Source of the DNA: an uncultured Pontibacter sp.
GTDB lineage: Bacteria > Bacteroidota > Bacteroidia > Cytophagales > Hymenobacteraceae
Reading direction: 5' to 3'
Length of the DNA stretch: 64,000 bases
NCBI GenBank assembly: GCA_947499125.1
Contig: CANMMP010000006.1
Span: forward strand, 114,668-178,667
A program made the translations under genes and the position numbers. Below the pieces are notes generated by a model, which was not told the DNA's origin, searched no databases, and saw nothing but the letters and a program-made list of their open reading frames with translations. Shown in pieces: positions 1 to 64,000 of this stretch; the first letter of the stretch is position 1, and every line of letters starts with the position of its first letter.

Positions 1-1847
1 AAATCTGGTTTTATAGTTGGGCGCGGCGTTTTAAAATCGAACCAGAACGAAAGCGGTTCTTCCAGAGCTACGCCATGCATGTAGTTGTAAAGCGCTTTTG
101 CTAAACCAGCGCTGAACAAACTATGATCGGTACCTTTCGGGTCGTTGTGCCACAGGTCGTTGTTTGCAAAGTCTCCTTCTGGCGGACCTACTTTTACTAC
201 ACCATACTTTTCCGGGTTCTTCCCGATCGGGCTGTGGGCCGTCATACTGAAGCGGTGCCAGTAACCGGACTGTATCACGTTGTTCTCAAAAAGCTGGCGC
301 ACTACTTCCAGCGAATCTATAGTTTCCTGGGTGGTTTCGGTCGGGAAGCCATACATTAAATAAGCGTGTACCATAATACCGGCCTGTGTAAAGCTGTCGG
401 TAACGCGGGCAACCTGCGCAATCGTTACGCCTTTCTCCATCAGGGCCAGCAACCTGTCAGAGGCAACTTCTAAACCACCTGAAACAGCGATACAACCCGA
501 CGCAGCCAGCAAACGGCACAGGTCAGGCGTAAATGTTTTCTCAAAACGAATATTTCCCCACCAGCTTATTTTCACACCACGGCGCAGCAGCTCAATGGCC
601 ATGTCGCGGAGCGGGGCAGGAGGTGCGGCTTCGTCTACAAAATGGAAACCTGTTTGTCCGGTCTGGGCTATTATCTGCTCAATTCTATCTACCAATAAAG
701 CAGCTGGGGCCACATCGTAACGGCGAATATAATCTAGAGTAATGTCGCAGAAAGAGCAGCGTTTCCAGTAGCAGCCGTGCGCCACAGTCAGTTTGTTCCA
801 GCGGCCATCGCTCCACAGGCGGTGCATTGGGTTCACCACATCAATCACCGAGAGGTAATCTTTTATTGGCAGTCCGCTATAGTCTGGGGTACCAACTTCG
901 GTGTGCGGCACATCAGGGTCGGTGCAGTTGTTAATGTAGGTTACCTGATCATCCTGAAGCATAAAGGTACGTTGCAGGTTGGCTGCTTCACGTTTGCCTT
1001 GCAGGTGTTCTATCAGTTTCAGCCACGGACCTTCGCCATCATCCAGCGTCACAAAATCAATATACTTGAACAGGCGCGGCTCGCGCAGGCTTCGGAGTTC
1101 GGTATTCGGGTAACCGCCGCCCATAGCTGTTTTTATAGTTGGGTAGTTGGTTTTAATGTGTTGCGCTAACCTTAAGCCACCGTACAAATTGCCCGGAAAT
1201 GGAATAGACAAACCAACTATAGTTGGCTGCACTTTCTGTAAATGCTCATCCAGTATCTCTAACAAAAACTGATCAACCAGATTTGGCTCTTGTTGCAGTT
1301 CTTCTTCCAATGGATCAAAGGAGGTGGCAGACATAGCCAGTTTTTCGGCGTAGCGGCTGAAAGCAAAGTATGGGCAAACGGTCTCCTTTATCAGGTCGCC
1401 AAGGTCTTCTAAGTATAAAGTTGCCAGGTAACGCGCGCGGTCGGTAATGCCCATGCTGCCAAAAGCCCACTCCAGGTCTTCCACCTGGTCAAAACGCGAA
1501 GCTTCAGGCAAATACCTGCTAAAGCTGATCTGCTGCGCTATAGTCAGGTCTTTGTTCTGCAGGAAACGGATCACCGGCTCAATCGTATTCAGGTACTCGC
1601 GCTTCAGCTTCAGTATCCGGAAGCTGTTATCAGAAAGCTCGTAGTCGCCAACTTCTATCGCAGCAAATATTTTCTTCAACCCTTCTTTGGAAAACATCCG
1701 CAACACCAGTTCAATGCCTAAATCAGCCTGCGCCACGTCATAGCCTTGAGCACGCAAAAAGCCGGTTAAGTAAGCCGTAGCCGGGTAAGGTGTGTTAAGC
1801 TGGGTAAGCGGAGGCGTTATGAGCAGTATAGTTGGCGTAGTTTCCAA
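1..1847 (-). CDS. B12-binding-domain radical SAM protein (3' end runs off the window; probable TTG start at 1847)
   Basis: Minus-strand frame is open from 1847 to the window edge; it is absent from the ORF track because there is no stop in the window. N-terminus ILLITPPLTQLNTPYPATAYLTGFLR looks like a B12-binding fold. Cys cluster GCYWKRCSFCD has its Cys codons at 771-773, 756-758 and 747-749. The + strand ORFs 123-1644 are antisense shadows. Confidence 0.75.
   Translation of the reverse strand, partial: METTPTILLITPPLTQLNTPYPATAYLTGFLRAQGYDVAQADLGIELVLRMFSKEGLKKIFAAIEVGDYELSDNSFRILKLKREYLNTIEPVIRFLQNKDLTIAQQISFSRYLPEASRFDQVEDLEWAFGSMGITDRARYLATLYLEDLGDLIKETVCPYFAFSRYAEKLAMSATSFDPLEEELQQEPNLVDQFLLEILDEHLQKVQPTIVGLSIPFPGNLYGGLRLAQHIKTNYPTIKTAMGGGYPNTELRSLREPRLFKYIDFVTLDDGEGPWLKLIEHLQGKREAANLQRTFMLQDDQVTYINNCTDPDVPHTEVGTPDYSGLPIKDYLSVIDVVNPMHRLWSDGRWNKLTVAHGCYWKRCSFCDITLDYIRRYDVAPAALLVDRIEQIIAQTGQTGFHFVDEAAPPAPLRDMAIELLRRGVKISWWGNIRFEKTFTPDLCRLLAASGCIAVSGGLEVASDRLLALMEKGVTIAQVARVTDSFTQAGIMVHAYLMYGFPTETTQETIDSLEVVRQLFENNVIQSGYWHRFSMTAHSPIGKNPEKYGVVKVGPPEGDFANNDLWHNDPKGTDHSLFSAGLAKALYNYMHGVALEEPLSFWFDFKTPRPTIKPD
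1215..1224. repeat. Perfect 10-bp palindrome AACTATAGTT (inside 14-bp palindrome CCAACTATAGTTGG, 1213-1226)
   Basis: Read directly from the sequence; it is the double form of the window-wide AASTATA motif. Confidence 0.95.
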
Positions 1848-1958
1848 AGTATAAATCTTAAAGTATAGGTCTGCACCGCAAAAGTACAGATTTTATGGCA
1901 CAGTGCTTTAGCAACAGCTATAGGTAGCGGCAGGTTCAGAAAAGTATGAAAGGAGAGA

Positions 1959-2186
1959 TTAGCGTCCGGCAGCTTTATTTACCGCATAACTTACAGCAGG
2001 CACAATGCCGATTACTATTACCGATATCATAAAGAAGATAACAAAGAAGGAATTTAGCCAGCGACCAAAAAAGTCTGATGGAATGCCAAAAGTATAAAGC
2101 TCCAGTGCAGACGCAAGCAATATACTGATAATCAGGATCACCAGCAGTTTGGTTTTAAGTTGAGTAGAAATGAGCGCCTTCTTCAT
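1959..2186 (-). CDS. Small two-TM membrane protein (possibly DUF2798-like)
   Basis: 75-aa ORF with two hydrophobic spans (LLVILIISILLASAL; FFVIFFMISVIVIGIVPAV). The family assignment is from memory only. Confidence 0.45.
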   Translation of the reverse strand: MKKALISTQLKTKLLVILIISILLASALELYTFGIPSDFFGRWLNSFFVIFFMISVIVIGIVPAVSYAVNKAAGR

Positions 2187-2223
2187 GGGTTGGTAAAACT
2201 ATAGCTGCAAAGGTACAACCCGT

Positions 2224-2233
2224 AACTATAGTT
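2224..2233. repeat. Perfect 10-bp palindrome AACTATAGTT
   Basis: Read directly from the sequence; intergenic. Confidence 0.95.
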
Positions 2234-2240
2234 CAGCAAC

Positions 2241-2432
2241 TTATGAGTGGCCTTTTTGTGCTTCTTCGTCTTCGCGCTGCTGGCTGCTTTTGCTTGTATT
2301 GGTTTTTGCCTGTGGTGGAGCAGTTTGCTTATGCTGCTTTACTTTCCCGATATCAGATGAGTCGTCTTTACTCGTTTCTTTGCGCGGATCTACTGGTTTG
2401 TTCTGTTTCATAGCTGTGGTTTTTGTTAACAT
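2241..2432 (-). CDS. Hypothetical small hydrophilic K/Q/S/T-rich protein
   Basis: 63-aa ORF with no hydrophobic segment and low complexity. Coding status is uncertain. Confidence 0.3.
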   Translation of the reverse strand: MLTKTTAMKQNKPVDPRKETSKDDSSDIGKVKQHKQTAPPQAKTNTSKSSQQREDEEAQKGHS

Positions 2433-2524
2433 GTTTTACGTGGAACAGTTACTGCCGGCCACTACTTTTAACTATAAAAGACCCATAAGCGTAGAAAAGG
2501 TATGTTAAACTGAACTTAAGAACT

Positions 2525-2791
2525 ATGAATAATAAACAAATTAAAGCGATAGCACTGGCGGCTTTTTTTGCCGGAGGCCTTACCATCACTGCCTGCGACA
2601 CCGGCCAGAAACCAGGCGATGTAAACACCGAAGACAGCGAGCATATTGATGAAGGATCTTTAAATGAAGGCTATACTTCGGATGAATATCCCGCTGATCA
2701 GGACACTGCCAACCTGGAAGATAAATATTATGATGATGCCGAAGGCGCTGTGCATGCCGGCGATGGCCAGCGGGATAGTGTTGATAGGTAA
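2525..2791 (+). CDS. Small acidic lipoprotein
   Basis: Signal peptide plus lipobox (GGLTITAC), then a D/E-rich mature part. It is followed by a perfect 16-bp-stem terminator. Confidence 0.55.
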   Translation: MNNKQIKAIALAAFFAGGLTITACDTGQKPGDVNTEDSEHIDEGSLNEGYTSDEYPADQDTANLEDKYYDDAEGAVHAGDGQRDSVDR

Positions 2792-2812
2792 AGAATAAAT
2801 AGATATAATGTA

Positions 2813-2850
2813 AAAAGGGGAAGTATAAGTCGGTTTATACTTCCCCTTTT
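2813..2850 (+). terminator. Intrinsic terminator whose stem arms contain the AAGTATAA/TTATACTT motif
   Basis: AAAAGGGGAAGTATAA (2813-2828), loop gtcggt, TTATACTTCCCCTTTT (2835-2850). This is a perfect 16-bp stem ending in a T run, 22 nt after the stop of 2525-2791. Confidence 0.8.
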
Positions 2851-3300
2851 GGTTTTATAATAGCTGTGCTGATTTATAGTTTAATTCTTATTGTCCAGAT
2901 CCTATATCTTCTCATTTGTCATTTCGAGCGTTAGTCGAGAAATCTTATATGTCCTATAGTTTAAGACCTGGCAGTGTGCGCAGCTCCTGCTAGTGTCTGA
3001 TATTCTATAGTTGAGGCAATCTTCAACTTGAACCAAGCTATACTTTCATAGCTACTTCTTATCCTGGGAGCTTTACTTGCCTATCGTTTTATAGTTGGCT
3101 TGGCTCGCTCAAGGCCGTGAGGCCTCGCCTTCGGGCATCGCGCTGCTGCTTTCTTGCTATCCTCGTGCCTCGGATTGCCTGCGGCACCGCAACAAATCAA
3201 AGGCGCTCAACCCAAAGACTGATATCTTTCGATAGCTACAGTTAATGCTTTTTGAGATTCAATAGTTGCTTCGACCTTTCTCGTGGCTATACTTCCGTAG

Positions 3301-3320
3301 GGACAGGTCGCGACCTGTCC
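3301..3320. repeat. Perfect 20-bp GC-rich palindrome GGACAGGTCGCGACCTGTCC
   Basis: Self-complementary when read directly from the sequence. Confidence 0.95.
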
Positions 3321-3333
3321 GCTCTCAGACTGT

Positions 3334-3349
3334 AACTATAAAACTATAA
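3334..3349. repeat. Head-to-tail dimer AACTATAA-AACTATAA
   Basis: Exact tandem copy read from the sequence. A second near-dimer AACTATAA-AACTATAG lies at 3412-3427. Confidence 0.95.
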
Positions 3350-3447
3350 CTAGTGAGAAAGCAGTAACAGAAACTGTCCCCTTGAGGGGACTACAGGGGT
3401 GTTAAAACGCCAACTATAAAACTATAGCTATAACTGCAGCAGAAATT

Positions 3448-3475
3448 CCCCTCCTCGGAGGGGCAGGGGTGGGTT
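3448..3475. repeat. Hairpin plus G-tract module CCCCTCCTCGGAGGGGCAGGGGTGGGTT
   Basis: Near-identical copy at 7031-7057 (CCCCTTCCTGGAGGGGTAGGGGTGGGT). Related G-tract tails lie at 3394-3405 and 3585-3600. Confidence 0.85.
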
Positions 3476-3621
3476 AAAAGCCTGCCACAGTAAACATCCC
3501 CCTACCCCCTTCAAAGGGGGACTTTGTTCGTGTCTAATGCCCCACCTTAGACAAGTCGCAGATCCCGAACTTGCTTCGGGAGAAGGGTTAGGGGTGGGTT
3601 AACACCACCTCTGCTCACAGC

Positions 3622-4707: not shown

Positions 4708-4731
4708 TTTTATAGTTTTAGATATTTATAG

Positions 4732-6633
4732 TTAAGGAATAAGAAATCGTAAGCTGAAAGTATAACCACGAGATGGCATAGCCCGGTAAGCCATGGTTTG
4801 GTACACCTGGTTGGTAATGTTATCGGAGCGGAGACTAAGTATAAACCTGCCAGGGCCGAGGTCAAATTTCCTGCTTAGTGCAGCATTTACAAGTATAAAG
4901 CTATCCAGGTGGTGCGATTCGGAGTTGTTGGTGTAGCGCAGGCCGGTATAGTTTAAAGTAGTGTGCAGTTGCCAGTTTTTATAGGTTATACCTGCTGCTG
5001 CTACGGCTTTGTGCAAGGGCACATACATCAGTTGCTTCCCTTTGTCGCCGTTGCCTTCGTAAACTTCTGCCTGCTCCGACGAAGTATAAGTATAGCCCGC
5101 CGAACCTGTAAGTTTATAGTTGCCTATAGTTGCCGTTAGCTGCTGACTTAGCTCAAATCCCATGGTTTGTACCTTCTGCAGGTTAACTGGCCTCCAGCGG
5201 TCGGTGGCATCTGGCGCCCACTGTATCCAGTCATCGATCAGCATGTGGTAAGCAGTTGCTTCAGTTTCAAGTATAAAGTTGTTTCCAACTATAAACAGGT
5301 GGCGTAGGCCGGCTTCTTCACTCCAGCCTTGCTCGGGTTTCAGGTCAGGGTTGCCGGCGTTTACCCAGAAGCGGTCGTTTAAGGTGGGCACACGGTAGCT
5401 ACCCGATACATTTCCTTTTAAGTATAAATGGTGCTGCTCGTGCTGGTAAAATCTCCAGTTAAAACCGAGTGCAGGTGTAGGAGTGGGGGTATAGTCTTCA
5501 ACTAAAGCCTGGCGTAAGTTAAGGCTCAGGTCCAGGTTAGGAGTAGGGTCGTAGCGGAAAAGTGCGAACAGAGCTGCCCGATTCTCCTGCTTAGTGCCCG
5601 CGTATCCATTGTTCTCAGCTATAAAATGTTGCAGGTTTATGCCGCCACGCAAGCTCCAGTTATTTACTTTGGTATAAGTTTGCTCGGCTTGTAGTTGGTA
5701 AGTCTGCACATCAGCAACAGCGTTGGTATCTGCGCCAGAGTAGTTCAGGTAATCGTTAAAGTAAGCCAGCTTTACATCGGTTTTGCCAAAATTACTTTCG
5801 TGTTCGAGTTGGGTCATCAGGCGCAGGTTTTTGTCCAGCTGCCCGGCTATAGTTGCGGAGCCCATGGCAGGTTGCAGTTCGCGGTCGGCAAAAGTATACC
5901 AGCCATGCAGGCCAATTTTTGTGTTGGATGACAGGTTATAGTTCAGGTCCTGGGTAAAACCATATTGGTGCTGGGCAGCGTGTTCTTCAGTAGTTTCAGG
6001 TCTGCCGCGTTTCGACATATCCTGGTAAGTAAAATTGTTTTCTGCTTTGCGCAGGTAAGTACCCAACCCGATAGTCAGTTTATCGCTGCCGAAACGAATG
6101 CGGCCATTACTGAAGTAGCGTCCAAAACTACCGGCCTCTTGCTGCAGGTCCAGGCCAAAACCTTTGCCGTTATACTTATGTGAGTTTAAAAGTACAGCCC
6201 CGCCAATTGCTCCGCTGCCGTATGTAGCCGCTGCCGAGCCGCTCTGCACCGATACTTCACCAAAGCCGCTAAGCGGTAACGTCGAAAAATCAGATTGTCC
6301 TAAGGTTGGTAAGCCAATGTTCAGCCCGTTCCATAAAACTGCTGTTTGCGATGCGTTTGTGCCCCTGAACGAAACGCTGGAAAGTCCGCTTACGCCATAG
6401 CTTTTAAAGTAAACCGGGGTGTGGGCCTGCAGGGCATCGGCTAATGAGCTGCTATTGTAGGTTCGTCGGTAGGCGCTGTCTATAGTTGTAACACGGCTGC
6501 CAGCTGCATAAACTTCGGCGGGTTTGCCAAATACTTCCACACTGCGCAACTGGTAAGCTGCGGTGTCTTGCTGCGCCACGGCGGGCACGGCAACTATAGC
6601 CAACATTAAAAATAAGAAGATACGGTTTGCCAC
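4732..6633 (-). CDS. btuB: TonB-dependent receptor, BtuB-like (vitamin B12 transporter), GTG start
   Basis: 633 aa with a signal peptide, a plug region (VEVFGKP...RVTTID, SFRG) and the C-terminal beta-barrel terminus YTFSLRFLIP. A cobalamin riboswitch lies directly upstream. Confidence 0.8.
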   Translation of the reverse strand: MANRIFLFLMLAIVAVPAVAQQDTAAYQLRSVEVFGKPAEVYAAGSRVTTIDSAYRRTYNSSSLADALQAHTPVYFKSYGVSGLSSVSFRGTNASQTAVLWNGLNIGLPTLGQSDFSTLPLSGFGEVSVQSGSAAATYGSGAIGGAVLLNSHKYNGKGFGLDLQQEAGSFGRYFSNGRIRFGSDKLTIGLGTYLRKAENNFTYQDMSKRGRPETTEEHAAQHQYGFTQDLNYNLSSNTKIGLHGWYTFADRELQPAMGSATIAGQLDKNLRLMTQLEHESNFGKTDVKLAYFNDYLNYSGADTNAVADVQTYQLQAEQTYTKVNNWSLRGGINLQHFIAENNGYAGTKQENRAALFALFRYDPTPNLDLSLNLRQALVEDYTPTPTPALGFNWRFYQHEQHHLYLKGNVSGSYRVPTLNDRFWVNAGNPDLKPEQGWSEEAGLRHLFIVGNNFILETEATAYHMLIDDWIQWAPDATDRWRPVNLQKVQTMGFELSQQLTATIGNYKLTGSAGYTYTSSEQAEVYEGNGDKGKQLMYVPLHKAVAAAGITYKNWQLHTTLNYTGLRYTNNSESHHLDSFILVNAALSRKFDLGPGRFILSLRSDNITNQVYQTMAYRAMPSRGYTFSLRFLIP

Positions 6634-6671: not shown

Positions 6672-6896
6672 AAAGTGATCAGTAGGAGCCAGGAAAGGCA
6701 GAAACTGTGCAGCTTTTTACCCGAAAGCATACGACAAATTATTGTCCGGACTGGCAGGTCTCCTGGCTCTCTTCAGTTAGTCTGCCTTCCCATACGGTTT
6801 GTGTACAGTGGCTTTGGTGTTAGACTAACCCCTTTTATGAAGAATACAGTTGCGGGAACAGCACAGGTATCACACCTGTTTCCCTTTTAAGGCCAA
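6672..6896 (-). promoter_or_regulatory. Cobalamin (B12) riboswitch
   Basis: The minus strand reads AAAAGGGAAACAGGTGTGATACCTGTGCTGTTCCCGCAACTGTA ... AAGCCACTG ... TATGGGAAGGC ... and a B12 box AGCCAGGAGACCTGCC (+ coordinates 6753-6768). Downstream CTGCCTTTCCTGGCTC can pair with the B12 box region as an expression platform. The 3' boundary is approximate. Confidence 0.92.
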
Positions 6897-6924
6897 AACT
6901 ATAGGCTATAGTTTCAGCCACCAA
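6894..6924 (-). promoter_or_regulatory. Bacteroidota-type promoter for the riboswitch-btuB operon
   Basis: The minus strand reads TTG (6922-6924), a 20-nt spacer, then TAGTTTTG (6894-6901), matching TTG/TAnnTTTG. It sits just upstream of the riboswitch 5' end. Confidence 0.5.
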
Positions 6925-7260
6925 TCGGGTGTAAAAGTAATGAATATTTTATAATGATGATTAAATAATGATTTTTAGTGATGAATTGCTCAATAAAGAC
7001 CTATAGTTGATTTGCAGTAATTGGCTAATTCCCCTTCCTGGAGGGGTAGGGGTGGGTTTTACAGTTTGGATTTATAGTTTCCTATAGTTGGGAAGATTTA
7101 TAGTTCAGAAAATTCATAGTTTATCGGATAGGGCGTGCCGGCAAGCCGTCGGGCTCTCGCGGCTCGTTCCGAATCAGGTCCGGGATCTTTGACTTTATAG
7201 TTCGTGCCTCACCAATAGAGCTCAAACACCCGCTCCATCCCTCACGCATACTATAAACTA
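6897..7260. repeat. ORF-free repeat island between divergent genes (phased motif array plus hairpin/G-tract module)
   Basis: About 7 motif cores in 365 bp. The array is TTTATAGTT (7071-7079), CTATAGTT (7082-7089), TTTATAGTT (7097-7105) and a degenerate ATAGTT (~7116-7121). The module at 7031-7057 is a copy of 3448-3475. Confidence 0.8.
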
Positions 7261-7908: not shown

Positions 7909-9474
7909 CTACTCAGCCTTCTCAAAAGGGTTACTTTTCTTAGCAGCCAGCCGCTGGTATAGGTAGGATGTTACTTCCGGAGCTACATCTGATAGTAAGT
8001 ATACAGTCGTGCCATGTTCGCGGGAATAGGGGTTGTTTATACTTCCGATCTCGGTTACACTTCCGACAAAAGCTTTTTCAGATTCCTGTATAGGTGCATC
8101 GCCAGCTTCTTTCACAACTATCATGTGTCTTATCTGTTGCAGGTCCGGAAACCAGTAAATGTAGTCGGCATTAAAAGATACAGCGGCAGGTAAAGTTTCT
8201 GAGGCATAATAATTAATAGCTCCGGCCTGTCCATAATTGTCACAAAGTATAAGCGTGTGGCTTTTCTCGGAGTCGGGTACAAGTTTATAAGCTGATTCGG
8301 CTATAGAAGCAAGCTCCCGCCAGCCTAACATATCAGCAAAATCCTGGGGCAGTGGGTGCTCTTTGCCATCTTCCCACTTCAGTAAGTTCAGCTCCTTAAA
8401 CTTCCCGGCTTTGGCCTGTATCCGGGTAGGGCTCAGCACCGGGAATACGACATCAACTAGAGGTATAAACAGCGCTACAGGTATAAGCAACCATACCGCC
8501 CGGCTATACTTCAGCCAACCTTTGCTGAAGAGCTGCTCCCAATACACACTTCCGAACGCAATAAGCACAGGATATAAGCCTATGGCATAATAACTTTTCG
8601 CGCTTAGAGACAAGAACAGCAGCATTACAAGTATAAACGTTATCCCTGCAAAACGATACGCGCGAAATGGCCTGTAAACTATAAATGCCACCAGTGCCGC
8701 CACCCACAAAAATATAGCACCAACAAAAAAGAGGATCTGGTCCAGCAGGAAATCGCTGGGCTGTACATTTACCAATTGCCTTTGCTTTAGCTCCTGCATA
8801 TGCGACACCACCGGGAAATTGTGCTGTACCTGCCACACCAGGTTTGGCATAGCAACCAGTATAGCGATGCCCACTGCAAAGTATAATTGTTTTTGAGCGA
8901 ATAGCTTTCGGTACGGCGAAAGTATAAGTGCTATTGCCAAACCTGCCACTAAAAACAGAATGGTATACTTGTTCAGGAAGCCCAGGCCTATAGTTAAACC
9001 CAGCCAGTACAGCCATTTTGCCTGTTGTGTATGGATAAACCGGATGAACAGGTAAAAGACGAGCGCCCAGCAAAGTATATCAAAAGAATTGGGCTGAAAC
9101 AGTATATTAAGGCGCAGCATCGCGGACAAAAGTATAGCTGTAGCTGCTAATACTTTCGCATAGGTCCCGCCTTTCAGTTCATCAACTATAAGCCAGGCAA
9201 CAACTATAGTTAGGGCACCAAACAAAGCCGGAAAAAACCGCACCCAAAAGTAACTGTTGCCCAGTAGTTGTATAAGCCATGCTACAAAAGCGGTAAAGGG
9301 TGGCACCGATACATAGCCGGCTGCGAGGTGGTTGGCCTGGTCCAGGTGCAGGAATTCGTCGCGGTGCAGTTCGTAGGTACCATCCACCAGCACATACTGT
9401 AGTATAAATTTAAGCAGCACAAAACCGGCAAGTATAGCTGTATTAAGCAGAGTAGCGCTACGCTGGTTGTGCAT
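7909..9474 (-). CDS. Glycosyltransferase family 39 (ArnT/PMT-like) integral membrane protein
   Basis: 521 aa with about 10 or more TM segments. First-loop acidic motif (HRDEFLHLDQANHL) and a soluble C-terminal domain. Confidence 0.7.
   Translation of the reverse strand: MHNQRSATLLNTAILAGFVLLKFILQYVLVDGTYELHRDEFLHLDQANHLAAGYVSVPPFTAFVAWLIQLLGNSYFWVRFFPALFGALTIVVAWLIVDELKGGTYAKVLAATAILLSAMLRLNILFQPNSFDILCWALVFYLFIRFIHTQQAKWLYWLGLTIGLGFLNKYTILFLVAGLAIALILSPYRKLFAQKQLYFAVGIAILVAMPNLVWQVQHNFPVVSHMQELKQRQLVNVQPSDFLLDQILFFVGAIFLWVAALVAFIVYRPFRAYRFAGITFILVMLLFLSLSAKSYYAIGLYPVLIAFGSVYWEQLFSKGWLKYSRAVWLLIPVALFIPLVDVVFPVLSPTRIQAKAGKFKELNLLKWEDGKEHPLPQDFADMLGWRELASIAESAYKLVPDSEKSHTLILCDNYGQAGAINYYASETLPAAVSFNADYIYWFPDLQQIRHMIVVKEAGDAPIQESEKAFVGSVTEIGSINNPYSREHGTTVYLLSDVAPEVTSYLYQRLAAKKSNPFEKAE
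9202..9211. repeat. Perfect 10-bp palindrome AACTATAGTT (inside the GT39 gene)
   Basis: Read directly from the sequence. Confidence 0.95.
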
Positions 9475-9595: not shown

Positions 9596-9946
9596 TTATT
9601 TGTCGTTTCTTCTGCGCTCGCTATCCTGCTCGTTATCGGTGCGGTTTTGAGGCGTTGGGTTGTTCGACCCGAATTTACCAACGGCATCATTCTCTAAACT
9701 ATTCGTGATGTCTTTGCGGCCACTCTGGTCCGTTTCTGTTCTGCTGCCCTGGCCTGCGCCCTGTGTTGGCTTATTCTGGTTTCCTGTTCTGGACATAGAA
9801 TCGCCCATTGCATTCGGGTTATTTGTACCCTGGTTTGTTACTTGTGTAGAACTTTTGCCACCTTGCTTACCCTGCTCAAACGAGTTTTTAGGATTGCTCT
9901 GGAAACCTTTGTTCTGTTGGTCTTTTTTATTTTTATCGTTATTCAT
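9596..9946 (-). CDS. Low-complexity hydrophilic N/Q/G/K-rich protein (hydrophilin-like)
   Basis: 116-aa ORF with no hydrophobic core. The opposite-strand ORF 9660-9962 is a mirror artefact. Confidence 0.5.
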   Translation of the reverse strand: MNNDKNKKDQQNKGFQSNPKNSFEQGKQGGKSSTQVTNQGTNNPNAMGDSMSRTGNQNKPTQGAGQGSRTETDQSGRKDITNSLENDAVGKFGSNNPTPQNRTDNEQDSERRRNDK

Positions 9947-10055
9947 GATCTTATTAATTTAAGTTTGTTTTCGGTAGTTGGAAAGGCATATAAACAAGTA
10001 TAAATGGCCCCAATAACGTACGAAGCCATTTATACTATAAGTTTATAAGTATGTA

Positions 10056-10409
10056 TTAGCGGTTACCTGATCTGTTGGAAGAGCCGGAACTGGAATTTCC
10101 TGATCTGTTAGTTGATCCTGAATCGGAAGAAGAGCTGCTACTGTTCTTGTGGCTTTGGCTACCAGCTTTAGCATGTCCTTGTGGGTCTCCGTGCCAGCCG
10201 CGGCCTTGTCCTGTACTTGAACTTGAGCTGCTGCTGTTACCACTATTTAAATTAGAAGTTCTGCCCGATGAGGAAGAGCTTCCTGTGTTTGATGAGTTGC
10301 GCGTTGATGAAGAACCCTGAGTTGATGAGTTCATGTTGTTGCGGGCATTGCTCGCTGATGGATTATTATTCTTGTTCTTATTCTGGTTACTCGAATTGTC
10401 GCGTTTCAT
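10056..10409 (-). CDS. Ser/Asn-rich low-complexity protein with a GWHGDPQGHAKAG stress-protein-like motif
   Basis: 117 aa, more than 50% S/N/G. The single non-repetitive island GRGWHGDPQGHAKAGSQSHK resembles KGG/general-stress repeats (from memory). This motif supports the minus strand over mirror ORF 10075-10320. Confidence 0.55.
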   Translation of the reverse strand: MKRDNSSNQNKNKNNNPSASNARNNMNSSTQGSSSTRNSSNTGSSSSSGRTSNLNSGNSSSSSSSTGQGRGWHGDPQGHAKAGSQSHKNSSSSSSDSGSTNRSGNSSSGSSNRSGNR

Positions 10410-10713: not shown

Positions 10714-11895
10714 TTATACTTTCTCGCAAAAGAGCACGATCGGCTTCTGGTGCATATCTGTAGAAAAGAAAAGATAATGGTTGCCGCCTTCGCGTATCCC
10801 GGTCTTTTTGCGAATATTAGCCACTGTATCCGGGAAGTTGCGCACCGTAATGTTTGCCTGTTTCCGAGGTAATTTTGCCAGGAGTTCTTTTTTATTGTAG
10901 CGGCTGGTCCCTGTGCAGGCAAAGCTTCGCCCCGGAAAATCGGGCACTAATACATCTGAAGTATAAAGGTGGCTGTTGGGGTGCAGCTTTTTAACCGGGA
11001 ACTGCTGGGTTATACTTTTATAAGCGCCTGCTTTAAGTATGGCTGCATTTGGCTCATACACAAAAGCCAGCGGGTCGGAGTAGGGTGGGTTTGCCTGCTG
11101 TTCCTGCTCTGCCGTAAATGTAAAGTTGCTCAGGCTGCCATCTGTCTTAAAGTTTATAGCTTCGCGTTCGGGCTGGTCAGGTGGGTCTTGCTGCATCAGG
11201 TATAAAACTTCCTTGCACTCGTTCTGCACAGCCACTACCCAAACTTTGGCAACTTTACCTAACTGCGATACCGCCAGATCAATATCCAGCATCGGCGAAG
11301 CTTTTAACAACACATTATCGGCTTTCTGAAATAGTTCTGGTAGCAAACCAAGTATATCCGGCTCACAGTCCTGTAATAAGTGCAGTTTTTCGGAGCGGTT
11401 GCCACGACGGGCCGGGTCCAGGTATATTACGTCAGCGTGACCGTTAAATTCTCTGATAAAATCAGCAGCCGTTGTATTTATAGTCTGGATGTTATGTGCC
11501 TGAAGAATTTTATAGTTATAGTTGGCAATAGCCGATAGCACTGTATGCTGCTCTACGTGTATCACCTGGGAAAACTGCTTCGAAAAATAGTAACTGTCTG
11601 CTCCAAATCCGCCGGTCAGGTCTATCAGCAGTTTTCCTTTTAGCAAACCCGCTTTAAATGCAGCAGTCACCTCCGACGAGCTTTGTTCTACCGAGATATT
11701 AGCTGGGAAAATAAGGTCAGGGTTATTGGCCCAGGCCGGTAGCTTACTCATAGCTTTTTGCCGGGCCTGTATCTGTTGTACCAGCTCAGCAACAGGCAGA
11801 TCAGGGTAGCGGCGGGCCTGCAACATTAAGGTGGCAGGCTGCTCGTGCAAGTGTTCCAGAATATAAGCTTTTTCGGCTTGCCCGTAGGTGCGCAT
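10714..11895 (-). CDS. Class I SAM-dependent methyltransferase (THUMP-like C-terminal region)
   Basis: SAM-binding motif LIDLTGGFGADSYYFS. I chose the start at M33 of the track ORF (MRTYGQ, 11895), which avoids overlap with the divergent gene and its promoter region. Confidence 0.7.
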   Translation of the reverse strand: MRTYGQAEKAYILEHLHEQPATLMLQARRYPDLPVAELVQQIQARQKAMSKLPAWANNPDLIFPANISVEQSSSEVTAAFKAGLLKGKLLIDLTGGFGADSYYFSKQFSQVIHVEQHTVLSAIANYNYKILQAHNIQTINTTAADFIREFNGHADVIYLDPARRGNRSEKLHLLQDCEPDILGLLPELFQKADNVLLKASPMLDIDLAVSQLGKVAKVWVVAVQNECKEVLYLMQQDPPDQPEREAINFKTDGSLSNFTFTAEQEQQANPPYSDPLAFVYEPNAAILKAGAYKSITQQFPVKKLHPNSHLYTSDVLVPDFPGRSFACTGTSRYNKKELLAKLPRKQANITVRNFPDTVANIRKKTGIREGGNHYLFFSTDMHQKPIVLFCEKV

Positions 11896-22753: not shown

Positions 22754-22841
22754 ATCAATTGTAGCTTAAGATTCTTGTTAAACTATACTTATACTTTGTG
22801 GTTGCAAAATTATTAAAAAATATCACTTTAACCGTTCAGCC

Positions 22842-23561
22842 TTAAATAGCTTCGGTCATGGTTACAAGTGTTCCTATTCTCTCGCCCTGCACTACGCGCT
22901 TCAGGTTGCCCTGCTTGTTCATATCGAACACAATTATAGGCAGGTCGTTTTCCTTGCAAAGTGTAAAGGCTGTCATATCCATTACATTCAGTCCCTTCTC
23001 AAACACATCTCTAAAAGAGATATCTGAATAGAAAATAGCATTCGGGTCTTTTTCCGGGTCAGCTGAGTAAATACCGTCAACACGAGTACCTTTCAATACC
23101 ACATCAGCCTCGATCTCGATAGCACGTAAGCTGGCTGCAGAGTCAGTTGTGAAGTAAGGGTTACCTGTACCGGCACCAAATATTACGACGCGGCCTTTCT
23201 CTAAGTGGCGCACCGCACGGCGACGGATATAAGGCTCACACACCTGCTGTATGTTAATTCCGGACAATAGACGCGTATAAACGCCCAGTTTCTCCAGTGC
23301 ACTTTGTAAGGCCATGCTATTGATAACTGTAGCCAGCATACCCATGTAGTCGCCCTGCACGCGGTCCAGGCCAACGGCTTCGGCTTGCACACCTCTAAAG
23401 ATGTTGCCACCACCAATAACTACTGCCACCTCTACACCAAGCGCCTGTACATCTTTTATCTCCTGTGCGTACTGCATCAGTCTTTCCGAATCAATGCCGT
23501 ACTGCTGGTCGCCCATCAGCGCTTCACCGCTAAGCTTTAATAATATTCTTTTATACTTCAC
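22842..23561 (-). CDS. pyrH: UMP kinase (GTG start)
   Basis: [25 protein letters not shown] and [12 protein letters not shown]. The start codon reads GTG on the minus strand. Confidence 0.95.
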
Positions 23562-24139: not shown

Positions 24140-24225
24140 CTCTTATTTTCTGGTTTTAAGGCCTAAAGATAGTTGAATTATCAGAGTAATTTTAGAAATT
24201 GAAGTCAAAATTAAAACAACCTATC

Positions 24226-58394: not shown

Positions 58395-58428
58395 AAAGGG
58401 ACATGACGGAAGTCGTGTCCCTTTTTTA
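58395..58428 (+). terminator. Terminator after rplQ (end of the ribosomal block)
   Basis: AAAGGGACA..GA / TC.TGTCCCTTT stem followed by TTTTTT. Confidence 0.8.
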
Positions 58429-58447
58429 TTTTTGTAAAAACCTCGAA

Positions 58448-59569
58448 ATGAAAAAACATACCGCTTCAGAAGCCATACTTCTTTTAGAAGATGGTACAGT
58501 TTATAAGGGCAAAAGCCTTGGAATGATCGGCACATCCGGTGGTGAACTTTGCTTTAATACAGGGATGACAGGATACCAGGAGATATTCACTGATCCTTCT
58601 TATTATGGTCAGGTAGTGGTTAACACCGTATCTCATGTGGGTAACTATGGAGTTCAGTCTGAGGAAGTAGAATCAAACAAAGTACAGATCAGTGCCCTTG
58701 TTTGTAAGGACTTCTCGCATTTTTATTCTCGCAAGACGGCTGAAGGTTCGTTACAGGACTATTTCGAAAAAGCTGGCATAGTAGGTATCTGCGAAATAGA
58801 TACGCGTGCACTTGTTCGTCACATTCGGGATAAAGGCGCTATGAATGCGATCGTTTCTTCTGAGATAACTGATATTGAAGCGCTACGTAAGAAACTTGCT
58901 GAAGTACCGTCTATGGCTGGTTTAGAGTTATCATCTAAGGTAAGTACGCCAGAAACCTATGACTTGAAACCAGAAGACGTTAAGTATAGAGTTGCCGTGC
59001 TTGACCTTGGTGTAAAACGAAACAGCCTTCATAACTTTATGCAGCGCGGTTGCGAAGTTAAAGTGTTTCCTTATAACACACCCTTTGAGGAGATGGAGAA
59101 GTGGAACCCGGATGGTTATTTTATCTCAAACGGACCAGGCGACCCTGCTGCAACACAGGTAGCTGTAGAAAGCGTAAAGCAGATACTGGAAAAAGAGAAA
59201 CCAATGTTCGGAATCTGTATGGGGCACCAGATACTGGCGCAGGCTAATGGTATTGCTACCTATAAAATGCATAATGGGCATAGAGGGCTCAACCATCCGG
59301 TTAAAAATCTGATGACGGGCAGAAGCGAGATCACGAGTCAGAACCATGGTTTTGTGGTAGATGCCGAGCAACTTAAAAATCATCCGGAGGTAGAAGTAAC
59401 GCACATTAACCTTAATGATAATACCATTGAAGGGATGCGTATGAAAACTAAACCTGCATTTTCCGTACAGTACCACCCGGAATCGTCTCCGGGGCCACAC
59501 GACTCAGAGTATCTTTTCGATGACTTTGTGGCGCTATTAGAGAAAAGTAAAAATCAAGTAAAACTATAG
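58448..59569 (+). CDS. carA: Carbamoyl-phosphate synthase small (glutaminase) subunit
   Basis: I chose the ATG at 58448 (MKKHTASEAILLLEDGTVYKG); the track start at 58403 lies in the rplQ terminator. Catalytic GICMGHQ and an H.E triad. TATTTTTG box at 58427-58434. Confidence 0.95.
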   Translation: MKKHTASEAILLLEDGTVYKGKSLGMIGTSGGELCFNTGMTGYQEIFTDPSYYGQVVVNTVSHVGNYGVQSEEVESNKVQISALVCKDFSHFYSRKTAEGSLQDYFEKAGIVGICEIDTRALVRHIRDKGAMNAIVSSEITDIEALRKKLAEVPSMAGLELSSKVSTPETYDLKPEDVKYRVAVLDLGVKRNSLHNFMQRGCEVKVFPYNTPFEEMEKWNPDGYFISNGPGDPAATQVAVESVKQILEKEKPMFGICMGHQILAQANGIATYKMHNGHRGLNHPVKNLMTGRSEITSQNHGFVVDAEQLKNHPEVEVTHINLNDNTIEGMRMKTKPAFSVQYHPESSPGPHDSEYLFDDFVALLEKSKNQVKL

Positions 59570-59574
59570 ATTAA

Positions 59575-60861
<1,287 letters not shown>

Positions 60862-60888
60862 AATCCAACATTTGAAAATATTTATGGC

Positions 60889-60926
60889 TAAGGCTGTGGG
60901 TTATATGACTCACAGCCTTATTTTTG
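60889..60926 (+). terminator. Terminator after eno
   Basis: TAAGGCTGTG / CACAGCCTTA 10-bp stem followed by TTTTT. Confidence 0.8.
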
Positions 60927-60954
60927 TATAAGTACCTTTTAGCCACAGTATCCC

Positions 60955-61254
60955 ATGATCAAGCGCATTCCAAAATTATTCCGCAACTTTTATTTCATTA
61001 CAACAGCCCTGTTTGTGGTTTGGATGCTCTTTTTCGACTCTAACGACTTTATTACACAGTACCAGACGAGCAAACAATTGAGCGACCTGGAAAACGTGAA
61101 GGAAGACTATGTAGAGAAGATGGAGGAAGTGGAGAAGGACCGTAAGGCGCTGATGGGTAATACCGACCTGCTTGAAAAATACGCCCGGGAAAAATACCTG
61201 ATGAAACGCCCAAATGAAGACGTGTTCATTATAGTTGCCAAGAACGAAAAGTAA
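60955..61254 (+). CDS. Septum formation initiator family protein (FtsB/DivIC-like)
   Basis: 99 aa with an N-terminal TM segment plus a coiled coil and ...KYAREKYLMKRPNEDVF. The position after eno is conserved. Confidence 0.8.
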   Translation: MIKRIPKLFRNFYFITTALFVVWMLFFDSNDFITQYQTSKQLSDLENVKEDYVEKMEEVEKDRKALMGNTDLLEKYAREKYLMKRPNEDVFIIVAKNEK

Positions 61255-61261
61255 TTCTATA

Positions 61262-61289
61262 GTTTATAGTTGCGTTTAAAACTATAAAC
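61262..61289 (+). other. AT-rich hairpin made of inverted motif copies, directly after the ftsB-like stop
   Basis: GTTTATAGTT (61262-61271), 8-nt loop, AACTATAAAC (61280-61289); a perfect 10-bp stem. An additional CTATAGTT lies just upstream at 61257-61264. Confidence 0.7.
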
Positions 61290-61389
61290 CTCAATGATAC
61301 TTATCACTTAATCCCTCCCTAAATAATTCGTAACTTTGTGCTATTGTGCTGCTGCTAAAAAGTAGCGGCCTCACCTAAGTATAGATACT

Positions 61390-63252
61390 ATGGCAAAAGT
61401 TGCAATAAATCTTTCTACTGGCTCTATCCAGCAGGAAGAAGTTATAGTAGGTATAGACCTGGGCACAACAAACAGCCTGGTGGCCTACATCCATCCTGAA
61501 GATAAAAAACCAATAGCTATAAACGACCAGGGCCGCGGAACAATAGTGCCGTCGGTGGTGCATTTTACCCAAACCGGCGAAACTATAGTTGGCACCGAAG
61601 CTAAAGACTACCTGACTACTGATCCGGCCAAAACCATTTACTCTGTGAAGCGCTTGCTGGGTAAATCGTATAAAGATGTTGGCGAACACAAAGATTATTT
61701 TGGCTACAAGATAATTGACGATGACAGCGAAGGCCTGGTTAAGATAAGAGTAGGAGATAAGTTCTATTCGCCAATTGAGCTGTCGGCAGAGATACTGAAG
61801 GAACTGCGCGAACGTGCGGAACACTCTTTAAAAACCCCGGTTAATCGTGCTGTAATTACCGTTCCGGCTTACTTTAACGATTCTCAACGGCAGGCTACAC
61901 GCGATGCCGGTAAGCTGGCTGGTCTGGAAGTACTGCGCATTGTGAACGAGCCAACAGCGGCTGCGCTTGCATATGGTATAGGTATAGACCAAAACGAAGA
62001 GAAAACAGTAGCGGTTTACGACCTTGGTGGCGGTACTTTTGATATTTCCATCTTAAGTATACATCAGGGTATTTTCGAAGTGCTTTCTACTAACGGGAAT
62101 ACTTATTTGGGTGGCGATGACTTTGACCGGGCTATTATAAACCACTGGATACAGGAAAACCAGCTGATTGCTGACACGGTAAATGAAGACAAGAACCTGC
62201 AGCAGGAACTACGCTTGCGTGCCGAAGAAGCCAAAAAGACATTAAGTTCGCAGCCGGCTTATACCGGAACTATAAACGGAACAATAGATTGCCACATTGA
62301 GCGGCATACTTTTGAGACCCTGATTGCACCAACTGTAGCCAGAACTATAGAAAGCTGCCGCATGGCTATGGCGGATGCCAAACTACAGCCGGAACAGATA
62401 GATGCTGTGATCATGGTGGGTGGGTCTACGCGTGTGCCAATGGTGTATGAGGCCGTTTCGGAGTTCTTCGGTAAGCCTGCCAACAATACGCTTAATCCGG
62501 ATGAAGTAGTTTCGTTGGGTGCTGCGATACAGGCTGATATATTGGCCGGTAACCGTAAAGACATTCTGCTGCTTGATGTAACACCACTTACCTTAGGTAT
62601 AGAAACAATGGGCGGCTTGATGGACTCTATCATCCCCAGAAACTCTAAGATACCAACCAAAGCAGGCCGTCAATATACTACCTCTATAGATGGACAGGTG
62701 AATATGAAGATATCTGTTTACCAGGGTGAGCGCGACCTTGTGCAGGAAAACCGTAAACTGGCAGAGTTTGATCTGAAAGGTATACCTGCCATGCCAGCTG
62801 GTTTTCCGAAGGTAGACGTGAACTTTATATTGAACGCCGATGGTATACTGAAAGTAGAAGCCATTGAACTACGCTCGGGTGTGCGCCAGGAAGTGGAAGT
62901 TAAGCCACAGTATGGCCTGACCGATGAGCAGGTTGAACAGATGCTGATGGACTCGATAACCCACGCCCGCGACGATGTGAATACCCGCATGGTGATAGAA
63001 GCCCGCACTACAGCAGAGCAGATGCTTTACCAGGTAGAGCGCTTTGTAGAGAAGAACGGTCAGCACCTGACAGCTGAAGAAATTGAGCTGACCAGAACCA
63101 ACTTGCAGAACCTGAAAGATGCGTTACCATCCGGCGATAAAAATACTATACTTAAAGCAGTTGATATCCTGGAAGAGCAGACAAGTCCTTTTGCAGAGCG
63201 TGTGATGCAGATATCTATTAAACAGGCAATGGCCGGTAAGAAGATCGAATAG
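61390..63252 (+). CDS. hscA: Hsp70-family chaperone, HscA-like
   Basis: 620 aa; GIDLGTTNSLVA, ITVPAYFNDSQRQATRDAG and DLGGGTFD. Length and N-terminal motifs are closer to HscA than to DnaK. No hscB/iscU lies adjacent. Confidence 0.75.
   Translation: MAKVAINLSTGSIQQEEVIVGIDLGTTNSLVAYIHPEDKKPIAINDQGRGTIVPSVVHFTQTGETIVGTEAKDYLTTDPAKTIYSVKRLLGKSYKDVGEHKDYFGYKIIDDDSEGLVKIRVGDKFYSPIELSAEILKELRERAEHSLKTPVNRAVITVPAYFNDSQRQATRDAGKLAGLEVLRIVNEPTAAALAYGIGIDQNEEKTVAVYDLGGGTFDISILSIHQGIFEVLSTNGNTYLGGDDFDRAIINHWIQENQLIADTVNEDKNLQQELRLRAEEAKKTLSSQPAYTGTINGTIDCHIERHTFETLIAPTVARTIESCRMAMADAKLQPEQIDAVIMVGGSTRVPMVYEAVSEFFGKPANNTLNPDEVVSLGAAIQADILAGNRKDILLLDVTPLTLGIETMGGLMDSIIPRNSKIPTKAGRQYTTSIDGQVNMKISVYQGERDLVQENRKLAEFDLKGIPAMPAGFPKVDVNFILNADGILKVEAIELRSGVRQEVEVKPQYGLTDEQVEQMLMDSITHARDDVNTRMVIEARTTAEQMLYQVERFVEKNGQHLTAEEIELTRTNLQNLKDALPSGDKNTILKAVDILEEQTSPFAERVMQISIKQAMAGKKIE
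61581..61590. repeat. Perfect 10-bp palindrome AACTATAGTT (inside the hscA-like gene)
   Basis: Read directly from the sequence. Confidence 0.95.
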
Positions 63253-63310
63253 TTTTGGCGCGCGTTCTCGCTCGTCTCGAACTATAGCTGTGCCTCTGGC
63301 TCGCTGAATT

Positions 63311-63359
63311 ATAAAACAAAAGTGCCGGCAAGTATAAACTGCCGGCACTTTTGTTTTAT
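63311..63359. terminator. Bidirectional terminator: perfect 20-bp stem with the motif in the loop
   Basis: ATAAAACAAAAGTGCCGGCA (63311-63330), loop AGTATAAAC, TGCCGGCACTTTTGTTTTAT (63340-63359). It lies between the convergent hscA-like and Ldh_2 genes. Confidence 0.8.
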
Positions 63360-63437
63360 AATCGACTTAAACTTATAGTTCATATCCGCGAGACGGGAGT
63401 GTGAGCACTGAAATCAGATTCTGGTTTTATATATGTA

Positions 63438-64000
63438 TTAGAACTTAATACCGAACTTCTTTCCTAACTTAAACAGGTCTTCGGCTACTGGTTGCAGCAA
63501 TGGTATACCTTCTCTTAGCCTGATCTCGGTTGTTAAGCGTTCCGGGTCGCCGGGGATAAGCACTGCTTTTTCGCCTTTCTTTGGCTTAGCTGCCCTGAAA
63601 GTTTCTATCCAGCGGTCCATATTTTCTTTAAACTCATCGGCAGGCCGGAAAGCATCGATGCGCATGGCTCCTAAAAAGTGACCTATACCTTTACCAACCG
63701 GGTCGGCAGGAGGATCGAGGAAGGCTACGAATGGTGGCACCCACGGGCCATAGTTTGCACCCGAAAGTACAGCCGAGAAAATATCAACTATAGCGGCAAG
63801 GGCATAACCTTTGTGGCTACCGCGTGTCAGGTCTGAGCCAAGCGGAAGCAGGGCACCACCATCTTTCAGTTCGTTGGCATTATCGGTATCTTCTCCATCG
63901 GCCGTTTGTATCCAGCCTACCGGGGCTTTTTTCTCTTTGCGCTGTAGTATCTCCAGCTTACCATTAGCAGCAGATGCCGTTGCGAAGTCGGCTACAAAAG
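63438..64000 (-). CDS. Ldh_2 family (malate/L-lactate/ureidoglycolate dehydrogenase-type) oxidoreductase; 5' end beyond the window
   Basis: The minus-strand frame is open from 64000 to the stop at 63438. The track shows only the last 100 aa from an internal Met. The upstream in-frame sequence reads ...GSHKGYALAAIVDIFSAVLSGANYGPWVPPFVAFLD. Confidence 0.7.
   Translation of the reverse strand, partial: FVADFATASAANGKLEILQRKEKKAPVGWIQTADGEDTDNANELKDGGALLPLGSDLTRGSHKGYALAAIVDIFSAVLSGANYGPWVPPFVAFLDPPADPVGKGIGHFLGAMRIDAFRPADEFKENMDRWIETFRAAKPKKGEKAVLIPGDPERLTTEIRLREGIPLLQPVAEDLFKLGKKFGIKF

Follow-up and report, generated by a model that had tools for sequence, protein, structure and literature searches.

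The stretch of DNA described here comprises 64,000 nucleotides from an uncultured Pontibacter sp., a soil bacterium of the Bacteroidota family Hymenobacteraceae (assembly GCA_947499125.1, contig CANMMP010000006.1, positions 114,668 to 178,667 of the forward strand), to which we refer as the window. The element in question is a pair of short words, AACTATA and AAGTATA (jointly AASTATA, with the complements TATAGTT and TATACTT), which occur in it far more often than expected. The gene content of the window is typical of Bacteroidota, with a tRNA-Tyr/Gly/Thr cluster, tuf, tRNA-Trp, open reading frames (ORFs) of the size of rpoBC and a ribosomal-protein cluster. Genes were called crudely, as 71 non-overlapping ORFs with a coding fraction of 0.91; Pfam scans took in 1-27 kb and 58-64 kb, and the names secE, nusG, rpl and rps come from conserved gene order alone. 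The regions that differ in their content of the words, and the gene that links the window to its relatives, are the following:

1-27000, no strand: ordinary-gene region, dense in the motif, 145 copies, about 5.4/kb
27001-58400, no strand: depleted block with tRNAs, tuf, secE-nusG, rplKAJL, rpoBC, rpsLG-fusA and the S10/spc/alpha operons, 30 copies, about 0.95/kb
58401-64000, no strand: second ordinary-gene region (carA-like, eno, dnaK), dense in the motif again, 22 copies
24199-26769, plus strand: M1 peptidase gene, 10 copies, the anchor for the related loci and for the codon alignment

On the plus strand of the window AACTATA occurs 47 times, AAGTATA 60, TATAGTT 53 and TATACTT 37 times. The total of 197, against about 29 expected from base composition, bears out the hand count of about 195 in an earlier note on this DNA. 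With both strands taken into account, no other 7-mer of the window is as common as AACTATA (100 copies) and AAGTATA (97); the most frequent unrelated word reaches 44, and Markov models of order 0-3 give an expectation of 12-25 per word; the near words AAATATA, AATTATA, AACTATC, AAGTACA and GAGTATA are at their Markov expectation. The over-representation also survives the codon-aware comparison that the earlier note had proposed as a check. Two such nulls were used, a synonymous shuffle within each gene, which keeps proteins and codon usage, and a codon permutation: the 147 coding copies compare with 33.7±5.1 under the former (z=22) and with 20.5±4.5 under the latter. The synonymous shuffle is the conservative one, since the motif inflates the very codon usage from which it draws. 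In a ranking of all 7-mers of the ordinary genes by z score under the synonymous null, the two words hold the top two places (66 vs 13.5 and 53 vs 8.5), and after them only their own one-base-shifted derivatives appear. The enrichment is real; it amounts to between 5 and 14 times the expectation and is seen in genes as well as in spacers.

Copies are found in all three frames and in both sense orientations, except where a stop codon would arise. The frame table, with all frames in use, agrees with the earlier view of a short DNA-level signal that is not a peptide repeat, and by hand computation from the coordinates the copies at 4758, 4837 and 5420 indeed fall in three different frames of the minus-strand btuB-like gene (4732-6633). 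Conserved proteins are not exempt: gmk, ahcY, eno and pyrH each hold some copies, that of pyrH at codons 2-4 (AAG TAT AAA), as had been pointed out. Density in the two ordinary-gene regions taken together (1-27000 and 58401-64000) is 11.9/kb in intergenic and 4.1/kb in coding DNA, so spacers are about three times denser; among the spacers of the window no bias toward the promoter side or the terminator side was seen.

The depletion claimed earlier for the most constrained, highly expressed genes is confirmed. In the tuf-to-rpoA block (27-58.4 kb) the ratio of observed to expected copies (O/E) is 1.7-2.9. We call a position permissive if some set of synonymous codons could place the word there without altering the protein; of these, 117 of 248 (47%) are filled in ordinary genes versus 28 of 217 (13%) in the highly expressed block. 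Since permissive positions per kb are similar in the ordinary genes and the depleted block, and amino-acid identity at motif codons is about the gene average, the word spreads mainly through synonymous freedom. A reshaping of proteins by the motif can be rejected on the same average identity, only a few cases being amino-acid-changing. The word needs TAT and ATA codons, and it is thus held back where codon usage is strongly selected.

Searching genomes with the M1 peptidase yielded 80 loci, each about 22 kb long, 45 of them from Pontibacter; the analysis covers 64 kb of the window genome and one syntenic locus per relative. The best matches to the peptidase are Pontibacter species (76-79% amino-acid identity), followed by Hymenobacter, Adhaeribacter, Rhodocytophaga and others. 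Per-locus k-mer counts over the 45 loci reveal that the hyper-abundant word differs by clade, and we call the three forms, AACTATAG, AAGTATR and AGGTATAG, dialects. AACTATA, mostly followed by G, is the word of P. humidus, P. populi, P. fetidus, P. burrus, strain Tf4 and one metagenome-assembled genome, at about 2/kb or 14 times the level of motif-free congeners. AAGTATR is that of sixteen species, with AAGTATA and AAGTATG each at 4-5 times the motif-free level, and AGGTATAG that of ten species (roseus through amylolyticus), at 5 times that level. About ten Pontibacter or Botryobacter loci have no outlier word among their k-mers; these motif-free loci, with the same genes and similar GC content, serve as an empirical null. 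In the window species and in strain H259, AAGTATA and AACTATA coexist, and within the clade of the window the densities of AAG and AAC forms per kb make up a graded series: 2.1/0.6 in P. vulgaris, 2.0/1.2 in the window, 2.0/1.2 in H259, 1.1/1.7 in P. fetidus and 0.5/2.0 in P. humidus.

A neighbour-joining tree of a single protein, the peptidase, recovers the AGG species and the AAC species as one monophyletic group each and scatters the AAG species across the other clades; the motif-free species fall into at least three separate clades. To judge from these sequences, AAGTATR is probably the ancestral form. In the relatives, the parts of the locus without a homologue in the window are as dense or denser (4.3/kb vs 2.4/kb), and the enrichment is hence not tied to particular genes. 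The single degenerate element AASTATAA(A) of the earlier note is better described as two words with different histories, since relatives have one without the other. The resemblance to the uptake signal sequences (USS) of Haemophilus, the DNA uptake sequences (DUS) of Neisseria and the cyanobacterial highly iterated palindrome (HIP1), which that note had pointed out, turns out stronger than it could know, owing to phylogenetic dialects like those of the Neisseriaceae DUS.

Pontibacter sp. Tf4 (L011, 7345-7900) offers a local curiosity: its spacer after nadD has grown to about 550 bp with 14 AACTATA(G) copies and includes an 81-nt local tandem duplication, while the orthologous spacer of the window measures 138 bp and has 2 copies. 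P. saemangeumensis (L020), nested in an otherwise motif-free clade, has TATATATA/TTATATAA instead of an NNNTATA dialect, with 22 copies vs about 0.7 expected from motif-free congeners.

Both orientations of the words are common, as had been observed before, without the skew of Chi or of the FtsK-orienting polar sequences (KOPS): strand counts in the three dialects are 186:189 (AACTATA), 539:430 and 88:121, in loci that share synteny and hence replication direction, and their heterogeneity is not significant. These counts bear on the idea of a Chi-type recombination signal, read by AddAB/RecBCD and protecting or activating linear self-DNA, by which word-bearing fragments would recombine more and the word would accumulate. 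Chi sites are likewise short (5-8 nt), lineage-specific and over-represented (Introduction of PMC4390886), a likeness that they share with KOPS and other architecture-imparting skewed oligomers. All of these, however, are defined by strand polarity relative to replication, of which the Pontibacter words show none, and a Chi/KOPS polarity was rejected on the strand counts. To our knowledge no Chi has yet been defined for the Hymenobacteraceae, which speaks for the idea, but known Chi words are usually G-rich, and both the density and the fold-enrichment seen here are far above those of known Chi sites. In our opinion, a Chi-type signal is very improbable.

Logos of ±14-16 nt rest on 99 and 97 copies from the window and on pooled sets of 374, 1124 and 387 copies from relatives, the orthologous copies in the pooled sets not being independent. 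Beyond the core they contain no information except for two bases 3' of TAT and a weak preference at position -1: position 7 is A or G, position 8 is A, G or C and almost never T, and position -1 is C or A. The word is therefore compact and asymmetric, of about 14 bits, consisting of 6-7 fixed bases, then R, then "not T". Position 7 was redefined as R on the grounds that the G variants AAGTATG, AGGTATG and AACTATG are co-enriched 3-5 fold. The extended consensus CCAACTATAA proposed earlier is only weakly borne out, for -1 is C in only about 35-39% of copies and the real extension lies only on the 3' side (position 8, A or G); the examples cited for TTATAGTTGG and CCAACTATAA do exist, within 0-2 nt of where they had been placed.

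Spacing, measured over 27 kb of the window and in related loci, is slightly clustered (coefficient of variation, CV, 1.25); short gaps are somewhat over-represented, and phasing is absent. The sole preferred geometry of pairs is an overlap with a 3-nt offset (d=3), which gives the palindrome AASTATASTT; there being no other preferred spacing, cooperative binding arrays and helical phasing were rejected. The palindrome AACTATAGTT is a minor form, involving 4 of 100 AACTATA copies, and the 10-bp palindrome itself is unable to form a useful hairpin. Its four occurrences lie exactly where the earlier note had put them (1215, 2224, 9202 and 61581), and the tandem copies that it listed are likewise present, at 3334/3342, 3412/3420 and 11511/11517.

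Could the words be an artefact, or have a trivial cause such as codon or dipeptide bias, base composition or a longer dispersed repeat, be it a miniature inverted-repeat transposable element (MITE) or a repetitive extragenic palindrome (REP)? The codons TAT, ATA, ACT and CTT do contribute, and in the Tf4 locus copies are carried by the local 81-nt duplication. Yet z=22 was reached against a null that keeps proteins and codon usage, enrichment is highest in non-coding DNA, all frames are used, no flanks are shared, and congeneric species with similar GC content and the same genes lack the motif. Both codon-aware nulls, together with the intergenic excess, dispose of a codon, dipeptide or composition artefact. 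As to the repeat, the logos are flat beyond the core, a search of the densest spacers for repeats gave only local duplications, and 74% of the copies (146/197) are coding, all of which excludes that the words are parts of a longer dispersed repeat with shared flanks over 20 bp. We attach practically no probability to a trivial cause. A sigma-70 promoter or the Bacteroidetes -7 box, the consensus of which is TAnnTTTG, was rejected as well: the word does not match the box, and within genes it is indifferent to orientation.

The peptidase genes of 46 Pontibacter, the window among them, were aligned by codon. Each clade shows its own word at positions that are occupied by near-cognates in the others. 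At column 1239 the AAC clade has AACTATA where AACTATT, AACTACT or AATTACT stand elsewhere; at column 2462, an amino-acid-changing case, AACTATA stands against AGCGATA and GGTGATC; columns 1480, 1497 and 747 have TATACTT or AAGTATA in the AAG group only, and columns 453 and 2219 have TATACCT or AGGTATA in the AGG clade. The words have spread by substitution, mostly synonymous. In four pairs of sister-species loci, the fraction of 7-mers perfectly conserved was 0.66 for the motif vs 0.35 for other 7-mers, 0.71 vs 0.39, 0.55 vs 0.34 and 0.79 vs 0.49, the control 7-mers including those of the very conserved tuf/rpl genes. AAGTATA sites of the window are retained to 61% in H259 and 52% in P. vulgaris, both of which keep the dialect, and to 26-28% in P. 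humidus and P. fetidus of the AAC clade; its AACTATA sites are retained to 39-48% within the AAC clade and to 22% in P. vulgaris. A direct AAG-to-AAC swap at the same site is rare (2-3 cases). The words are thus conserved between sister species beyond other 7-mers and decay where the dialect has changed, and this conservation by dialect with decay after the change suggests a trans-acting, sequence-specific reader, the specificity of which would have evolved vertically by single-base steps.

What kind of reader might it be? One candidate is an abundant nucleoid-associated or chromosome-organising protein, with many weakly selected binding sites serving compaction or architecture, which may be relevant to the desiccation- and radiation-tolerant Hymenobacteraceae. 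Density is highest in spacers, some direct arrays have a spacing of 8-16 bp, the sites are conserved between species, and TATA steps are intrinsically flexible, all of which would suit such a protein. On the other hand, pooled instances show neither helical phasing nor a preferred spacing, roughly half of the permissive coding sites carry the word whatever the gene, and per-site selection on roughly 10^4 sites would presumably be weak. The complete absence of the motif from about 10 congeneric species is also hard to square with a core architectural role. We regard a nucleoid protein as rather improbable.

A methylation or repair ratchet is a more serious candidate, although in our judgement still an unlikely one. 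According to this model, which Elhai proposed for HIP1 (Elhai 2015), the word would be recognised by a DNA methyltransferase that is inherited vertically, or by an enzyme that nicks or repairs DNA at specific sites; in its variants, mismatch correction is biased to the cognate word, or dense sites are selected, for instance for strand discrimination, and changes of the specificity domain give rise to dialects. Dialects one base apart and the loss of the signal in several clades agree with it, and the excess conservation and the decay of sites fit equally well. A compact asymmetric word of 6-8 bp with R or V degeneracy at one end is, moreover, a typical site of a methyltransferase, or of a Type IIS/III or bacteriophage exclusion (BREX)-like system, and this is the shape of the present word. 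HIP1 itself is tied to cognate methyltransferases (PMC4390886), which adds to the appeal of the model. However, the deamination neighbours, which a cytosine-methylation drive of the very short patch (VSP) repair type would deplete, are not depleted (AATTATA has a ratio of 1.08 and AAATATA of 0.79 relative to motif-free species), and the words hold a single G:C pair, the TATATATA variant none. Restriction-linked sites are normally avoided rather than enriched, and the clean clade structure speaks against a mobile restriction-modification system. A depletion of single-mismatch neighbours of the VSP kind was also looked for and rejected, most such neighbours being mildly enriched and the position-7 G variant strongly so.

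The reading that we tentatively favour, as a possibility and not as an established function, is that of a self-DNA tag comparable to USS, DUS or HIP1, which would build up because uptake or transformation favours DNA that carries it. AACTATA(R) and AAGTATA(R) are real signals in double-stranded DNA, and their abundance, DNA-level nature, compactness, non-polarity, dialects, clade structure, excess conservation and decay were all observed in this analysis. From these we infer a protein reader and a directional, clade-specific force; that this reader belongs to the transformation machinery is speculative. The force would push tolerated near-matches to the exact word and then keep them there, and it would come from a sequence-specific protein encoded in the Pontibacter chromosome. 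The specificity of that protein may have drifted by single-base steps, from an ancestral AAGTATR to AGGTATAG in one clade and to AACTATAG in the clade of the window, with loss in several others, and the window species would be an intermediate with both AAG and AAC words. By the mechanism established for USS and DUS and now proposed for HIP1, the reader might act when DNA of the same species enters the cell in natural transformation, either as it is taken up or as it is processed afterwards, and possibly via methylation; word-bearing fragments would be recombined more often and the word would spread by molecular drive, checked only by purifying selection on proteins and codon usage. Such selection would be the reason why ribosomal, rpoBC and tuf genes are spared.

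The self-DNA tag fits the non-polarity, the use of all frames, the excess in spacers, the sparing of constrained genes, the dialects, the repeated loss and the inverted terminator pairs, and it suits the consideration that selection acting site by site could hardly maintain roughly 10^4 sites. The complete loss in at least three clades, too, fits a dispensable function such as competence. Several points weigh against it. No evidence of natural competence in Pontibacter or in any of the Hymenobacteraceae was found here or in the literature searched. At 7-8 bp (about 14 bits) the word is shorter than USS and DUS and about 5 times denser, it has none of the AT-rich flanks of USS, and its slightly clustered spacing (CV 1.25) is neither even nor quasi-periodic. 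Every measured pattern is also predicted by another reader-dependent drive or by weak site-wise selection, and the genome-wide behaviour is extrapolated from 64 kb and one syntenic 22-kb locus per relative.

How do the words compare with the known systems? With DUS they share a hyper-abundant short word on both strands, in genes in all frames and in spacers, the inverted pairs that sometimes form terminator stems (two in the window), and the clade dialects, 1-2 bases apart around an invariant core and tracking phylogeny, which in Pontibacter are AAC, AAG or AGG plus TAT(A) and which have been described for DUS in the Neisseriaceae (PMC3630211). Unlike DUS of 10-12 bp, the Pontibacter word has 7-8 bp, is about 5 times denser, is unrelated in sequence and belongs to a Bacteroidota host, and two dialects can stand at equal density in one genome. 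A ComP-type receptor, a type IV pilus and competence belong to DUS, whereas the Pontibacter word is known here from sequence alone. USS likewise accumulate by substitution at tolerated protein positions, are enriched in spacers and scarce in the most constrained genes, have no polarity, and have coevolved with proteomes (PMC2817400). As far as a comparison of the sequences goes, the Pontibacter word differs from USS in having no AT-rich flanking tracts, a shorter core and uneven spacing; AACTATA and AAGTATA are unrelated to the USS and DUS cores AAGTGCGGT and GCCGTCTGAA.

HIP1 (GCGATCGC) resembles the Pontibacter words as a 7-8 bp word present once per few hundred bp, spread by substitution without indels and better conserved between species than the background; within the phylum or genus, some members have variants or no word at all. 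Its function was long unknown and is now linked to transformation, which HIP1 is reported to enhance in a methylation-dependent manner (bioRxiv 10.64898/2026.06.24.733823). On the contrary, HIP1 is a palindromic octamer, while the Pontibacter word is an asymmetric heptamer with AACTATAGTT as a minor form; the latter is AT-rich rather than GC-rich and has no quasi-periodic spacing, and cognate methyltransferases are known for HIP1 and none for the Pontibacter word. In behaviour the words are closest to DUS (dialects) and to HIP1 (compactness, density, spread by substitution, conservation), while by sequence, symmetry and taxon they are members of neither.

We know of only three lineages with genome-saturating short words of this type, those of USS, DUS and HIP1, and the origin and change of such words are still debated. 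Our literature search found no description of these words in Pontibacter, nor of an uptake-sequence-like element in Hymenobacteraceae or Bacteroidota, in line with the earlier note, which knew of none for the motif or the lineage. Here one culturable genus holds three dialects, two-dialect species, a decaying old dialect and motif-free species, a series that the classic systems lack; it makes the cause testable, as between molecular drive based on uptake, a methylation/repair ratchet and site-wise selection. The dialect series in a single genus and the two-dialect genome should be surprising and experimentally useful to specialists. As k-mers the words are strong taxonomic markers for binning; donor DNA may have to carry them if these bacteria are to be transformed, and they bias codon usage as well as motif and promoter scans on these genomes. 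It is a bolder and more doubtful proposition that the Hymenobacteraceae have their own self-DNA recognition for genetic exchange, independent of that of Pasteurellaceae, Neisseriaceae and cyanobacteria, with a 7-8 bp tag that mutates into dialects (AAGTATR, AGGTATAG, AACTATAG) and the window genome caught mid-switch, old and new tags equally dense. Possibly, GGGGTAGG, CCCTAGC and CACCTAGG in Hymenobacter and Solirubrum would be further dialects of such a tag.

Other Hymenobacteraceae indeed have short hyper-abundant words of their own, with unshared flanks (Hymenobacter loci L050, L052, L056, L057, L066, L072 and L074; Solirubrum locus L054). L050 has 17 copies of GGGGGTAGG vs 0.6 expected, and GGGGTAG is found in four further loci; in Solirubrum, CACCTAGG reaches 12 copies vs 0.6 expected, distributed 1:11 between the strands; and CCCTAGC is present 19 times vs 2.7 expected among these loci. 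Hyper-abundant words may thus be family-wide. In Adhaeribacter terreus (L047), AAAACGCTATG(C/T)TTT is present 9 times vs 0.7 expected, with shared flanks and often a downstream AAAAAG, and gives the impression of a longer regulatory or repeat element, not of a bare word.

Individual sites and elements of the window that involve the words are these:

4732-6633, minus strand: TonB-dependent (btuB-like) receptor gene, 17 copies, including AAGTATAA at 4758, 4837 and 5420
7909-9474, minus strand: PMT_2 glycosyltransferase gene, the densest gene of the window, 16 copies, 10/kb
2792-3621, no strand: 830-bp convergent spacer, 12 copies, including tandem AACTATAAAACTATA at 3334-3348 and 3412-3426
2813-2850, plus strand: terminator-like hairpin, the stem an inverted AAGTATAA/TTATACTT pair, followed by a T run
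9997-10036, minus strand: terminator-like hairpin, stem ends AGTATAAAT / ATTTATACT
6891-6919, no strand: inverted pair AACTATAG-G-CTATAGTT with 14-nt arms at the 5' edge of a cobalamin riboswitch
7073-7121, plus strand: direct array of three TATAGTT and a CATAGTT, spacings 10, 16 and 16 nt, in the divergent spacer upstream of the MPG glycosylase gene
1215-1224, 2224-2233, 9202-9211 and 61581-61590, no strand: overlapping double form AACTATAGTT, a perfect palindrome
11511-11523, plus strand: overlapping direct copies TATAGTTATAGTT within a gene
5082-5094 (AAGTATAAGTATA), 61258-61271 and 22781-22796: similar overlapping direct copies
23550-23558, minus strand: pyrH codons 2-4 (AAG TAT AAA), a copy in a conserved protein

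The suggestion that inverted pairs act as terminators holds for 2 of about 6 strong terminator-like hairpins in 1-20 kb, those at 2813-2850 and 9997-10036. The cobalamin riboswitch (6736-6940, minus strand, 98 bits) lies upstream of the btuB-like receptor and DUF5074 genes. Next to motif-rich DNA, a G-rich REP-like spacer element is present three times (3440-3477, 3570-3602 and 7030-7060); it consists of a small hairpin CCCCTYC-NNGG-AGGGG followed by (Y)AGGGGTGGGTT, and contains GGGGTAGGGG, which resembles the hyper-abundant word of some Hymenobacter species. At 9596-9946 and 10056-10409 (minus strand), adjacent small ORFs encode low-complexity N/K/Q-rich proteins and have no copy of the motif; the flanking spacers do have copies.

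The matches listed from a metagenome scan for three AACTATA within about 70 nt, aimed at other regions of the genome, lay in AT-rich or tandem-repeat DNA unrelated to Pontibacter, and no Pontibacter plasmids surfaced in the plasmid collection. As to other words, TATATA is much rarer in the window than an order-3 Markov expectation (9 vs 33.5), which is partly an artefact as the motif inflates TATA-containing tetramers; GTCGAC, GACGTC and GAGCTC are likewise rare (O/E 0.18-0.28). CGATC/CGATCG is about twice as common in all three motif-bearing groups as in motif-free Pontibacter (345 vs 145 in the AGG clade), and this excess could reflect a second reader-linked word or an effect of GC content; in the window, CGATCG reaches only 1.4 times its Markov expectation.

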